From positions 1-38,196 of the forward strand of contig CAXHJY010000066.1 of the NCBI GenBank assembly GCA_964016885.1: a stretch of DNA of 38,196 nt, in the 5' to 3' direction. Shown one piece after another: positions 5,348 to 33,523 of the stretch. Under the pieces are notes generated by a model, which made no database searches, was not told the DNA's origin, and saw nothing but the letters and a program-made list of their open reading frames with translations. The stretch comes from Eledone cirrhosa. Taxonomy: Eukaryota. Position 1 is the stretch's first letter. Every line of letters starts with the position of its first letter. The position numbers were made by a program, and so were the translations under genes.

Positions 5348-5574
5348 TATATATATATATATATATATAATAGGAACCAGTAAGACCCCGACAGCTGAGC
5401 TCAAGCCGTTTCGACGGCTAATTCTGGACTAATTCAATCCAGAATTAGCCGTCGAAACGGCTTGAGCTCAGCTGTCGGGGTCTTACTGGTTCCTATTACC
5501 CACTCTACTACCTCAAGTATTGAGTACTTTGGTGCGTTATGGTCCACCTGGTTCCTTACCACATTTCCTTCGTT
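5348..5574 (+). mobile_element. Palindromic PLE-type terminal fragment, family C, containing the 3' half of an HHR
   Basis: ~60-bp inverted arms around 5420 plus a ~76-nt tail. ...gaattagccgtc GAAA cggct-tgagctc-agctg TC ggggt gives stem II 3' side, stem III and a GUC site. Confidence 0.75.
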
Positions 5575-5730
5575 ATATATATAATATATATATATATATA
5601 TAATATATATATATATAATATATATATATATATATAATATATATATATATATATATATATAATATATATATAATATATATATATATATATAATATATATA
5701 TTATATATATATATATATTATATATATATT

Positions 5731-5894
5731 CTGGACTAATTCTGGACTAATTCAGTCCAGAATTAGCCGTCGAAACGGCTTGAGCTCAGCTGTCGGGGTC
5801 TTACTGGTTCCTATTACCCACTCTACTACCTCAAGTATTGAGTACTTTGGTGCGTTATGGTCCACCTGGTTCCTTACCACATTTCCTTCGTTAT
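5731..5894 (+). mobile_element. Tandem duplicate of the family C long arm, duplicated together with its downstream TA tract
   Basis: 5745-5894 is near-identical to 5425-5574. The interruption pattern of TA tract 5575-5728 is repeated at 5895-6048. Confidence 0.85.
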
Positions 5895-6173
5895 ATATAT
5901 ATAATATATATATATATATATAATATATATATATATAATATATATATATATATATAATATATATATATATATATATATATAATATATATATAATATATAT
6001 ATATATATATAATATATATATTATATATATATATATATTATATATATATATATATATTATATATATATATATATATATTATATATATATATATATTATAT
6101 ATATATATATATATATATTATATATATATATATATATATATTATATATATATATATATATTATATATATATAT

Positions 6174-6572
6174 ATTCGACTGGCCAGCTTTAGAATTCCC
6201 TTTTTGTTATATTAATCTGCGAGAATCCTGGTTATCGAGTTGAGCTCTGCTGATGATGAATTCCAACCGTGACCATCTCCGCTGAAAGTTTTCATGAAAT
6301 AGTCTTACGACTATACAGAGCATTTGAAGTTTTTCCAAATTGAAAGATAGGTATCTTGAACTTTATTTTATCATGAGTTAAGGCTCTATTGATTTTTCCC
6401 TGGATTTCACTAAATTCTGTGGATGAATTTATATCCTGATTCTCTTTAAGATGAGTTTAAATTATTTTTCCCACATCTTACGTTAACTATTTTTCCCATT
6501 TTGACGCTATAGTCACTTATATACTATGGAATGCTGTTCGCTTTTCGCTGCAGTGTTTTCTATACCTTTCAT
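6174..6572 (+). mobile_element. HHR-bearing PLE-type terminal fragment, family G
   Basis: Unique island between TA tracts with a complete HHR; no ORF recognised. Confidence 0.55.
6244..6321 (+). ncRNA. Type I hammerhead ribozyme with full stem III
   Basis: gctctg CTGATGA tgaa...ttca-t GAA atagtc-ttac-gactat A cagagc. 6-bp stem I, 6-bp stem III, AUA cleavage triplet. Confidence 0.85.
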
Positions 6573-6710
6573 TTATATATTATATATATATTATATATAT
6601 ATATTATATATATATATTATATATATATATTATATATATATATATTATATATATATATATTATATATATATATATTATATATATATATATTATATATATA
6701 TATATTATAT
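6573..6710. repeat. (TA)n tract with near-regular 11-13-nt TATT periodicity
   Basis: Direct reading. Confidence 0.95.
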
Positions 6711-7302
6711 AAATTAAAATATGATACACACTTACGTGTTTTTGTTGTAATTGACAATAAAATAGCTAGAATGAAATATCTTAATTCAAATACATATAGT
6801 CTGCCTGTGTCGATCTAAAAAATAATAAATAAATACTCACAAACACATATCGGCAAAAGGCCTTGGTACCTAGACACGTTTAAATTTCAAAATACAAACT
6901 TTTTCCGCAGATCAGTCCGAACTTCAAAATTTAAACATGTTTCACAAAAGATGGTATAATAGTGAAATAATTAATTAATTAGTAGTGAGATAATTAATTT
7001 TCTGTGTTTATCAATAGGTACCCAGATAAATTAAGTAACTTCACCTCGGAAAAATATCTAAGGTCTAGTTAACGTAGCGAAAATACACAAGGTTTTGCAC
7101 ACGAATTATTCCAGTCCTCTAGCCTCCCATACTCATAGTGCTAGAAATAACAGCCGTTTATATGGGATTACAAATTCAGCTCAACTGAGGGAGCAGTAAT
7201 ATAATATAATTTAGAGTTTACACTCAATGGGGTCATTTACAATTATTTTAGCTCTAAGAATCACTTCTGAGCAGTATAAATTAATATATGATACACACTT
7301 AC

Positions 7303-8975
7303 ATGAGTTGCGATTTGGATTTTTGTTTGGGACGGATAGCACGGGGCCCAAGCCTTGGGTGTATTTTGACGGTGATGCCAACATCATTTGGGCAGTGCTA
7401 ATGAAACATTTTCCACATCATGCAGATAATATAACACTCACGGCGACGTTGGAGTGAGTAAAGTTTCAGCTTTTCTAGTCGACCCCAGTAGTCAAGGTCT
7501 GACATGCCATCTATCTTTTTCGTGATTGCCCTACGGGGAGCTTCAAGTTTCATGATACTTTGTTTCGTGTGGGGAGACCACAGTGGACAACAGTATTCAA
7601 GGTGTGGTCGGGCGAAAGTGGAGAAGAGAAGGATAATGGTGTGGGAATCTCTCGACTGAAATGGATGAAACCCTTTATGCTGTTGAGGCATTCCTTGAAG
7701 CATGGTAGAGGCGTTTGGGGTGGCCTATAGAGCCCAACTACTATTAGGTTGTTGGTTTGACTGAATACAGTGACTGCTTCGCAGTATCCATTAGTGAATA
7801 TGTTCATAGCCTCTGTTGAGAAAGAATTATGGACATAAATGGCAGTCCCACCCTTTCTTCTGCCAGCGCGATCAGCACGGATGGCTTTGAAATTTTTCAC
7901 TTTCACCTCGGCTTCCAAGTGGAGGTTACTGAGATGGGTTTCAGTGAGGACCAAGAAAGTGATGTGGTTTGGATGGACATCAACCCAGTCCTCCAGGAAT
8001 TTGATCTTCCATTTTTGAGTATTGGTGGAAGGGCTGATGCCTTGGGCGTTAAGCAAAAAATGTTGAGGTGAGAGTGGATGGTTTTAATTGTTTTGGTGTG
8101 TTGTTAATTTGTTTGTTTGTTTGTTAATGGCAGCAATGGGAGTTTGTGCAGTGGGGTGATAGTGGAGGGTGGTGCTGGGTGATAGCTCGTATGTTTTTTT
8201 CCATTTCTTTTGCCAGATTCATTATGGCTAAAAAAGAGGAAGAAGTTTCCTGTTTAGGAGACTGTTGGTGACTGTGGTAGTGGTTATTTTTATGTAGGTT
8301 ATGGTTTTTGTTTTTGCTTTTATTTTTATTTTTATTTTCATTTGTCCGACGGGTCCCCGGGAGATGGGTAAAGGGACAATCCCGGTGTAAACACAATCTG
8401 TCTCACAGGGAAAAGCAGTAGATTTGTGGATTCCTTGTTTGAGTTATTGGTGGTTGTGTTGGTGTTAAATTAGGGTATGTATTATGGTGGTGGCTGTTTG
8501 TGGGGATAGACCGTTTTGTCCTAGGTAAATGGATGAATTTGCAGCCACTATCCGTACATATTCTATAGCGGAGAGAGTAAGCGGCAAATGATGGGGTTTC
8601 GAGTGGGTGTGTATGTGTGTGTGTTGTGAGAGGTGTGTTGTGAGTAGGTTTTGACGACCTTTGTGGGCTGTAGGAGGGAGAGTTCTTGTATTGGGTATAG
8701 AAGGTAAATTCCTTGAGATAGCAGTAGGCAAAGATGTAGTAGTAGTAGTAGTAGTAGTAGTAGTAGTAGTAGTAGTAGTAGTAGTAGTAGTAGTAGTAGT
8801 AGTAGGCAGAGGACATGTTGGCAGAGGTGATGATTGGACTGCTGGGGCAGAGAAAGGAAGAGGCGTTTCCTGCTGTGAGACAGTGACTACTGGGAGGTCA
8901 ATAGTTTCATTTAGTAGATCGGCCATTGTTGATGGACCAAGGAGTGGTTCACACTGTTGTTGTTGTCGTTGTATA
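7303..8975 (-). mobile_element. Internally deleted, degenerate CR1-group LINE
   Basis: ORF1 from ATG 8926 with an (ACT)n poly-Thr tract and two CxxxxCxFxH fingers. The ORF2 APE N-terminus (LNAQG, LTETHL, RADR..GG, YRPP) is joined near 7662 directly to the ORF2 C-terminus (RPHLEYCCPLWSP, LYSLQRRRE). Confidence 0.85.
8736..8804. repeat. (TAG)n microsatellite inside LINE ORF1
   Basis: Direct reading. Confidence 0.95.
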
Positions 8976-9130
8976 TTTATATATATATATATATATATAT
9001 ATATATGTAGGAGGTGAGTTTTATTGTAGTACAATAAAGCAATGCAGATATCGGATAAGAAGCACTCTACAGTTTGTGGGACTGGAGTATGCATAATATA
9101 AGATCAAAAGATGGTTAAAGGAGTTCCATA

Positions 9131-32239: not shown

Positions 32240-32310
32240 TGTCTTATCTGATGAAAACACAAATATTATTGCATGATGATGTTTGTTTTTGAAATGCGCA
32301 TAATAAAATA
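32240..32310 (+). ncRNA. Minimal type I HHR, family D
   Basis: tgtcttat CTGATGA ... GAAA tgcgca TA ataaaata. Confidence 0.82.
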
Positions 32311-32435
32311 CATGGAACTCCTTTAACCATCTTTTGATCTTATATTATGCATACTCCAGTCCTACAAACTGTAGAGTGCTTCTTATCCGATATCTGCATT
32401 GCTTTATTGTACTACAATAAAACTCACCTCCTACA

Positions 32436-33030
32436 TATATTATATATATATATATTATATATATATATATTATATATATATATATATTATATATATATAT
32501 ATATTATATATATATATTATATATATATATATTATATATATATATATATATTATATATATATATATTATATATATATATATATATATTATATATATATAT
32601 ATATATATTATATATATATATATATTATATATATAATCTATATTATATATATATATATTATATATATATATATTATATATATTATATATATATATATATA
32701 TATATATATATATATTATATATATATATATATATATATATATTATATATATATATATATATATTATATATATATATATATATATTATATATATATATATA
32801 TTATATATATAATCTATATTATATATATATATATTATATATATATATATTATATATATTATATATATATATATATATATATATTATATATATATATATAT
32901 ATATATTATATATATATATATATATATTATATATATATATATTATATATATATATATATATATATATATATATATATATATATATATATATATATATATA
33001 TATATATATATATATATATATATATATATA
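32436..33030. repeat. Interrupted (TA)n tract
   Basis: Direct reading. Confidence 0.98.
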
Positions 33031-33073
33031 TACAATATTAAATAAATGGAAACTATATTTATAAAACCATATT

Positions 33074-33139
33074 TATTTCATTATATATATTTCAGGGATA
33101 TCATATTAACAATATGCTATGCCTTCCTCAGACAAAATA
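33074..33139 (-). ncRNA. Minimal type I HHR, family E
   Basis: Mirror of 33284-33349. Confidence 0.72.
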
Positions 33140-33283
33140 CAATATAAACAGTTTTATAGATAAATAGATTCGACATACCGTAACAACATCGACTTGTATT
33201 TGAAAAGGTTGATTTGATTTCAAATACAAGTCGATGTTGTTACGGTATGTCGAATCTATTTATCTATAAAACTGTTTATATTG

Positions 33284-33349
33284 TATTTTGTCTGAGGAAG
33301 GCATAGCATATTGTTAATATGATATCCCTGAAATATATATAATGAAATA
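33284..33349 (+). ncRNA. Minimal type I HHR, family E (CTGAGGA core)
   Basis: tattttgt CTGAGGA ... GAAA tatata TA atgaaata. The core change relative to the 29148 copy is at the variable position 7. Confidence 0.75.
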
Positions 33350-33523
33350 AATATGGTTTTATAAATATAGTTTCCATTTATTTAATATTGTAAATATACT
33401 CCAAATATTTGTCGAGTGCTTTTATATCAGTTATAAATATTTACTAGTTGTAACCCAACAATTTAAATATAACTTTCCATATATATATATATATATATAT
33501 ATATATATATATATATTATATAT

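Follow-up and report, generated by a model that had tools for sequence, protein, structure and literature searches.

Paired short and long 3' ends in head-to-head Penelope-like element insertions of Eledone cirrhosa and a probable twin-priming route of integration

The window analyzed here, a stretch of 38,196 nt of the Eledone cirrhosa genome (GenBank assembly GCA_964016885.1, contig CAXHJY010000066.1, positions 1 to 38,196 of the forward strand), contains insertions of Penelope-like elements (PLEs) of five families, designated A, C, D, E, and F, in which two arms of the element stand head to head within (TA)n. One arm of a pair ends at a fixed short end (S) and the other at a fixed long end (L) further 3', so that a single arm carries the tail lying between the two sites. 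This pairing of one S with one L end holds in the window and in the sampled genome and is real and general in this genome. Probably both strands of the (TA)n target are cut, cDNA synthesis is primed by each end at a site of its own that a hairpin specifies, and the two cDNAs become joined at their 3' ends. Earlier publications already describe the inverted copy, the one-sided tail, and a pair of internal reverse transcriptase (RT) start sites on both cut strands (Arkhipova et al. 2013, PMC3846280; Craig et al. 2021, PMC8557442; Frangieh et al. 2024, PMC11167929). The near-obligate pairing of one S with one L end appears new relative to the literature, as do the arm-length evidence against cDNA fold-back and a tandem bulged stem-loop next to the ends.

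Pairing of the short and the long end

Pairing was scored in 290 loci from the start of contig C1 of the 3.0 Gb assembly, merged into 225 stretches (1.68 Mb), together with the window. The loci were the first listed motif matches, chosen blind to pairing (for family A, the first 30 matches only), and loci L001-L030 were excluded as biased. The S/L pairing rate rests on these sampled stretches, whereas genome-wide counts cover single ends and were obtained with exact motifs just 5' of the short site, for which a reversed-pattern control returned 0 in each case.

In all five families, the 3'-end positions in the sample and the window were sharply bimodal, in agreement with a preceding sequence-only reading of the window, which had proposed two discrete, family-specific ends instead of a continuous distribution. 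All of the ends are TA-like. The tails measure 80 nt in C, 88 nt in A and in D, 89-93 nt in E, and 60 nt in F, and the short-to-long spacing of 60-90 nt given by that reading is not general, two further families having tails of ~161 nt (J) and ~184 nt (I); in family K the tail measures ~98 nt. Exact-motif arms number 31,919 for C, 26,670 for F, 24,396 for A, 11,380 for D, and 3,266 for E genome-wide. In family C, 15,199 of the 31,919 arms pass directly from S into TATA, and the long site is followed by TATA in 23,288 cases vs. 313 cases of read-through; in family F, 11,327 of the 26,670 arms extend into the tail.

Both ends lay at modal sites in TA in 204 of 237 two-ended pairs, and these comprised 200 L/S, 3 S/S, and 1 L/L pairs, an excess of L/S over a 50:50 expectation with p ~6e-54. 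The remaining pairs were 20 L/S and 2 S/S without clean TA, 8 of other kinds, and 4 at an edge. When ends without clean TA are included, symmetric pairs (S/S or L/L) make up 6 of 226, so that two-long and two-short pairs do not occur at the random frequency that would have spoken against the pairing, even with one L/L pair of family F found later. Half of the symmetric pairs (3/6) have duplicated flanks, in the form of an inverted duplication, compared with 1 of 210 L/S pairs, and later DNA events are thus their likely source. Together with the diversity of the junctions described below, the rarity of duplicated flanks around L/S pairs also speaks against paired copies being DNA duplications of one insertion. 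The later F long/long pair, at L330:679-1240, has arms that differ at a tail variant, lacks duplicated flanks, and is directly followed by a tiny insertion consisting of a short arm and a long stub.

The rule extends to other kinds of copies. Family F contributed 29 L/S pairs plus 5 L/S pairs without clean TA. Among long read-through insertions of family C, 12 were followed downstream and three were resolved at both ends, all three being S/L, as is a C copy in L190. A further 213 arms were single; a stub was called beside 12 of them and was of the opposite type in 12/12, while 74 had TA nearby without a called stub, 107 had no TA nearby, and 20 lay at an edge. Direct flank repeats accompany 5 of 210 L/S pairs, some of them of low complexity, and (TA)n hides target-site duplications. 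Non-TA direct repeats of ~15 and ~60 nt flank the S/L insertions at G000:C1:16998360 and C1:5393562 and are possible target-site duplications.

Arm lengths, 5' ends, and junctions

Arms vary in length from ~15 nt to 4 kb, whereas their two ends stay the same. Measured in reference coordinates, the S arm is the one that extends further 5' in 72 of the 200 L/S pairs and the L arm in 31, with corresponding values of 46 and 18 among 125 pairs of young copies, and the arms are within 10 nt of symmetric, forming a near-perfect palindrome, in 87 pairs. In A, C, and D, the L arm is more often the shorter one. Most pairs have overlapping arms; in 16 of the 200 the arms do not overlap, the L arm starting within the tail (18 had been flagged, of which two were set aside on visual inspection as internal deletions). 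If one cDNA folded back on itself, the long arm would have to extend 5' to the same point as the short arm or beyond it, which the 72 pairs with a longer S arm contradict; where the L arm starts in the tail, the L cDNA cannot have been the template of the S arm; and, since the tail is absent from an S cDNA, fold-back of the latter never yields a tail. These data exclude single-cDNA fold-back as a general route, and the S-longer and non-overlapping pairs argue that each arm would be copied independently from RNA. The two-site twin priming put forward in the sequence-only reading is supported by the same counts.

The two arms of an insertion resemble each other. There were no cross-subfamily pairs among 59 C pairs, eight of which differ at 1-2 of five diagnostic sites, and the mean number of differences was 1.3 within vs. 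4.0 between insertions in C and 1.1 vs. 6.1 in D, families A and F being too uniform for this comparison. Such concordance would fit a single RNA template.

At their 5' ends, arms pile up at ~-60 (C), -66 (A), -170 (D), and -181 to -199 (E), each time at TTTCA, and in family C a TATA-like box lies ~25 nt upstream of the pile-up. The TTTCA position probably marks the transcription start, with a pause site as the alternative. An extra, cap-derived G was looked for at non-native junctions and was present at 11 of 36 in D, where it is confounded by the partner arm, and at none in A, C, and E. Both priming sites likewise lie close to where the transcript begins; cDNAs started at these sites would run off early and leave short palindromes, and a tandem source would be needed for long copies. 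Head-to-tail C arrays of 3-4 units with a period of ~3.54 kb (G000:C1:91476613-91487262, C1:437200348-437210963, and C2:320551596-320558706) may be the source loci or may have been produced from a circular template. Among 18 read-through C copies, 4 begin at the 5' pile-up beside a short inverted arm, and with these copies and the arrays at hand a circular RNA template is not needed. At L332 and L350 (G000:C1:25028800-25030000), the main C arm extends from the long site to the pile-up, resumes at ~899 of the unit, and reaches the pile-up a second time, which is likely a template jump at the RNA 5' end. The 5' ends of family F concentrate 250-280 nt ahead of the short site (window 19044-19070 and F pairs), at AARATGGCG, a sequence that we take to resemble a YY1 site. 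Hammerhead-cut RNA was considered as the main template and rejected, as no 5'-end pile-up lies at the predicted cut in D or E.

The junctions between arms gave 174 distinct strings among 188, and the pairs are thus not copies of one master palindrome. The variable meeting point of the arms noted in the sequence-only reading is borne out by this diversity, with the correction that the 5' ends themselves concentrate at the family-specific TTTCA. In a rough classification with no null model, 57 of the 188 junctions showed microhomology, 18 were blunt, and 113 contained inserted bases, the last class being inflated by diverged subfamily sequence. Family C junctions often carry 11-nt reiterations of the 5'-terminal bases of the template (5728-5753; L004, L012, and L026), which resemble realignment and recopying at the template end, fill-in by polymerase theta being the alternative.

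The stem-loop at the ends and the route of integration

A bulged stem-loop with covarying pairs, RCUC-Y..R-NN-GAGY-RC, whose two-base bulge is mostly UU, accompanies the ends of the Hydra-type families. In A, C, D, and E, from which the motif was derived, all 8 ends lie 2-7 nt 5' of it, and read-through copies, which reveal the sequence beyond the long site, have it there too; the motif occurs twice in tandem ahead of the open reading frame (ORF). In families outside the derivation (J, K, I, H, and M), 5 of 9 ends match the strict pattern within 12 nt, at 3-10 nt, against a background of 212 in 14,419 positions (1.5%). The matching ends are those of J and K and the long end of I; the strict motif is missing in the reference copy of H, at the short end of I, and in family M, other H copies carrying the first hairpin. 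Pair 5, which the search pattern left unconstrained, is Watson-Crick in 22 of 24 instances (14 C-G and 8 U-A), with a shuffle p of 1e-5 that is optimistic because the instances are related by descent, and pair 6 is Watson-Crick in 16 of 24, with 5 G-U and no A-C, which favors folding on the sense strand. Outside this genome, 8 of 9 metagenome loci were inspected: the tandem pair stands ahead of the ORF in three (L321, L322, and L323, at 38-39% identity and from other hosts), one has the second and a partial first hairpin, two have one hairpin at the 3' end, and two lack the region. In L321 and L323, the distance from the end of the 3' copy to the following hairpin is 3 and 2 nt, respectively. 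Among the supplementary sequences of PMC8557442, as far as covered, the Hydra-1_Ajap consensus opens with both hairpins, and the end of two other Hydra records consists of the first hairpin plus the tail.

In the mechanism that we favor, each of two RT protomers would occupy a stem-loop of its own, the two stem-loops probably lying on a single RNA, and one S and one L end would follow of necessity. The TA-like end would pair briefly with the cut (TA)n primer, and each RT would copy toward the RNA 5' end until it falls off or meets the transcription start at the TTTCA pile-up. Priming at the 5'-proximal pseudo-long terminal repeat (pLTR) would then give rise to tens of thousands of palindromes of 120-450 nt. 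Finally, the two cDNA 3' ends would be joined by microhomology or a short templated fill, and the gaps repaired. The joining step, the dimer, and the use of one RNA are what we infer in this scheme; that one RNA and a dimer carry out the twin priming is a proposition on which we are about evenly divided, leaning slightly to doubt. A bolder version is held more tentatively, namely that in the Hydra clade twin priming might be obligate and programmed, with tandem stem-loops on one RNA each docking one protomer of an RT-nuclease dimer that makes a double-strand cut in (TA)n, both ends being extended at once and the cDNAs joined at their tips, without second-strand priming of the classical kind. 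In that case the two hairpins could act as a portable element that positions the template as in telomerase, and all endonuclease-containing (EN+) PLEs could owe their inverted copy and one-sided tail to this principle.

Three other explanations compete with this one. Self-priming, by which one cDNA (or an antisense RNA) would fold back into a hairpin whose arms the GIY-YIG nuclease trims at S and L, the stem-loops being DNA recognition marks, was proposed for the inverted junction and the tail in PMC3846280 and PMC8557442, and it accommodates the frequent near-perfect palindromes, the variants common to both arms, and the TA-like character of all ends, as expected of nuclease sites. However, fold-back of an L-primed cDNA cannot yield the S-longer or the non-overlapping arms, fold-back of an S-primed cDNA cannot produce the tail, and near-symmetric junctions are explained by both arms stopping at the same TTTCA site. 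Moreover, the G-U wobbles point to the sense strand, and in vitro the tail boundaries are RT start sites on sense RNA (PMC11167929). Self-priming is accordingly judged improbable. It is very improbable, and already largely refuted, that the palindromes are units copied whole in the manner of miniature inverted-repeat transposable elements (MITEs) or short interspersed elements, or DNA duplications, with ends that are those of a master copy. Family C palindromes are indeed short and number tens of thousands, and the best-scoring matches to the window copy have one common center (the query is biased by including that center), but the distinct junctions, the range of arm lengths with the same two ends, the single L/S pair with duplicated flanks, and the recurrence of the pattern in five families of two clades all run counter to a master copy.

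A further possibility is that two RNAs take part in an asymmetric complex, one always begun at S and the other at L. Overlapping arms would then arise without a need for strand displacement, and the family F L/L pair whose arms differ at a tail variant is readily accommodated. Two RNAs nevertheless sit poorly with the lack of cross-subfamily pairs among the 59 C pairs and would need an extra rule against S/S and L/L, and the more often shorter L arms of A, C, and D look as if the L enzyme had to pass the S complex on a shared template. This explanation is considered unlikely, if somewhat less so than self-priming.

Several observations weigh against the favored reading of twin priming from one RNA, in addition to the optimistic shuffle value given above. 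The concordance of arms would be equally consistent with two RNAs transcribed at one active locus or with gene conversion at a later time. Some symmetric pairs lack duplicated flanks (3 in the sample and the F L/L pair at L330), and many arms lack a recognizable partner, the 107 of 213 single arms having no TA run near the 5' end. The sample represents one chromosome of one genome and was selected by exact motif, and it is thus biased to young copies. As for the stem-loop, 4 of the 9 test-family ends do not conform to the strict pattern, two of these belonging to a copy that appears to be damaged, and no RCUC/GAGY motif was found at the ends of family F in spite of its identical S/L pairing, so the motif is no general cause of pairing. 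PMC11167929, in the text covered, saw no difference in start site between strands and reported no pairing.

The origin of the inverted repeats and one-sided tails of PLEs is named as an open question in PMC8557442. The pairing rule and the arm-length data separate competing models from genome data alone, and the tandem stem-loop provides a precise handle for testing each end. Priming at two hairpins would explain the mirror-image insertion shape long known in PLEs and, if true, would give the RT group nearest to telomerase a route of integration with priming by both target ends at fixed RNA positions. For the annotation of repeats, it matters that the short palindromic repeats (>30,000 arms in family C alone) would be explained as run-off products and not as MITEs.

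Insertions in the window and comparison with known systems

The window holds eight head-to-head insertions in (TA)n, including the family A copy at 33524, and one unpaired A arm (Table 1). All of the ends named in the sequence-only reading were located at or within a few bases of where it had placed them, and the confirmed C, D, E, and F ends are the outer coordinates of the corresponding pairs in Table 1. Both A ends were likewise recovered, the long one at ~3249 and the short one at 33524, except that the latter, taken to be unpaired, has a long-end stub as its partner. A supposedly independent C insertion at 5736-5897 turned out to be part of a tandem duplication.

Table 1. Arms, stem-loops, and related features of the PLE insertions in the window
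Feature	Position	Strand	Remarks
Family A (Hydra-type PLE) arm	3249..5289	-	Long 3' end ~3249; without partner arm; 5' end fused to inverted fragment of neighboring element
First (S-site) bulged stem-loop, family A	3285..3331	-	Within tail
3' half of ORF in family A arm	4332..5294	-	
Family C short-end arm	5371..5432	-	
Family C long-end arm	5438..5575	+	80-nt tail
Family C S-site stem-loop (ACTC..TT-GAGT-AC)	5502..5527	+	5 nt 3' of short site
Tandem duplicate of C long arm	5736..5897	+	Period 320 nt; no independent insertion
Family D long-end arm	9005..9248	-	
Family D short-end arm	9247..9410	+	
Family C long-end arm	10806..10944	-	Second subfamily
Family C short-end arm	10945..10990	+	Junction rearranged
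Family F inverted short-end arm	17138..19045	-	1.9 kb
Family F main arm	19044..23456	+	pLTR, broken RT + GIY-YIG ORF, pLTR, 60-nt tail, long end
Family E long-end arm	28797..29070	-	S-site stem-loop 28857-28878
Family E short-end arm	29071..29262	+	
Family D short-end arm	30050..31135	-	
Family D long-end arm	31139..32436	+	S-site stem-loop 32353-32379
Family E short-end arm	33031..33212	-	
Family E long-end arm	33218..33480	+	S-site stem-loop 33398-33419
Family A short-end arm	33524..34104	-	~580 nt
Family A long-end stub	34105..34120	+	16 nt; non-overlapping partner of 33524 arm

Other features adjoin these insertions. A further PLE-like family, G, once formed a palindrome (5287-5313 and 6175-6574) whose center was the TA tract now occupied by the C copies; of its left arm just 27 nt are left, which a deletion has probably fused to the family A arm at the 5' end of the latter. 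Fragments of 18-20 nt within the TA array (1908-1925, 2055-2074, and 2149-2168) match the end of a LINE-like (long interspersed element-like) element starting at 34201. LINE-like elements ending in (CAT)n adjoin the same TA tracts, often on both sides (10019-10355, 15900-16996, and 23871-26967), and at L190:192-473 two such ends face each other over one TA tract. Internal tandem units occur in the 3' untranslated regions of D (~211 nt, 31733-32146) and A (~139 nt, 3487-3754), and ORF copies of C and D stop ~1.1 kb or more before the short site.

Longer genomic copies carry long RT-nuclease ORFs, and partial tandems of the pLTR, the inverted 5' copy, and the 3' tail are present, as in EN+ PLEs. 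In families A, C, and E, the ORFs are long and contain a YRDD core, a YIG/YVG motif, RWR, and SDKT, CCHH being absent by eye; family D shows RWI in a frameshifted copy, in which no DKT was seen. A CNCxxxxxC (CxCX5C) linker is found in A, C, D, and E, and so is the insertion preference for (TA)n. No Pfam family matched the C or A proteins. A search with the family C protein scored 2,058 relatives among 8,000 candidates. The Hydra clade is defined in section 11 of PMC8557442 by an RWK-type motif, DKT for DKG, a CxCX5C linker, the lack of CCHH, and (TA)n targets, and A, C, D, and E match it by their motifs and by-eye likeness to the published Hydra alignment. The family F ORF gave Pfam RVT_1 and GIY-YIG at E 2e-4, just under the cut-offs, and has by eye a CX4CxxC linker (CIDKKCITC) and a C..C..H..H nuclease motif, on which grounds it seems Neptune- or Nematis-like. 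CUGANGA..GAAA hammerhead cores were seen by eye in D, E, and F and not in the last 300 nt of A or C; in Rfam, four loci gave nothing at gathering score, and the 147 sub-threshold matches were TA-driven microRNA with no hammerhead.

A literature search, with most subscription papers outside its coverage, found no PLE twin-priming model, pairing rule, or Hydra stem-loop, and the words 'tail', 'stem', and 'initiation' are absent from the text examined of a 2026 retrozyme preprint. Arkhipova et al. 2013 (PMC3846280) described the inverted pLTR with an optional 31-bp tail and proposed self-priming, and Craig et al. 2021 (PMC8557442) reported a tail of 30-40 bp, often at one end only, which they ascribed to nuclease resolution. 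The canonical insertions of both papers share with those described here the head-to-head inverted copy, the often one-sided tail, the (TA)n targets, and the partial tandems. However, their tail is 'optional' and 30-40 bp long, whereas here it is found on exactly one arm in 200 of 204 pairs and measures 60-184 nt. The Hydra clade of PMC8557442, section 11, agrees with A, C, and E in RWR and DKT and with A, C, D, and E in the CxCX5C linker, the lack of CCHH, the C-terminal nuclease, and (TA)n; tandem RCUC/GAGY stem-loops occur in the consensus sequences of that work and go unmentioned in its Hydra section.

The closest likeness concerns the Poseidon PAc element of Anolis carolinensis studied in vitro by Frangieh et al. 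2024 (PMC11167929), in which both target strands are cut and extended, two internal RT start sites bound the tail, a stem-loop lies at the start region, the protein is predicted to form a dimer, and hammerhead cleavage is dispensable. The mechanism outlined in the sequence-only reading is consequently less new than supposed in its cutting and extension of both strands from two start sites. PAc belongs to a clade other than those of the families studied here, later integration steps were left unvalidated by this sole in vitro study, and the covered text of that paper is without an inverted-pair model, an S/L pairing rule, or a duplicated docking hairpin.

Twin priming as such has a counterpart in L1 elements. 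In L1 twin priming, the first primer anneals to poly(A) and the second to an internal site of variable position, the segments are normally non-overlapping, and only a minority of insertions are inverted. Ostertag and Kazazian (2001) reportedly described how both target ends prime cDNA and the joined cDNAs give a 5' inversion with microhomology. In the PLEs, by contrast, both sites are fixed, internal, and close together, the arms usually overlap, and twin priming appears to be the main route; the L1-type combination of poly(A), a variable internal site, and non-overlapping segments was not found. The overlap of the arms, on which the sequence-only reading had based its distinction from L1, is optional here, and the real difference lies in the fixation of both start sites. 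As an analogy only, telomerase, in which a TERT-bound stem positions the RNA template, offers a sister-group RT that starts at an internal template site adjacent to a bound helix, and the 11-nt reiterations at C junctions resemble realignment at a template end.

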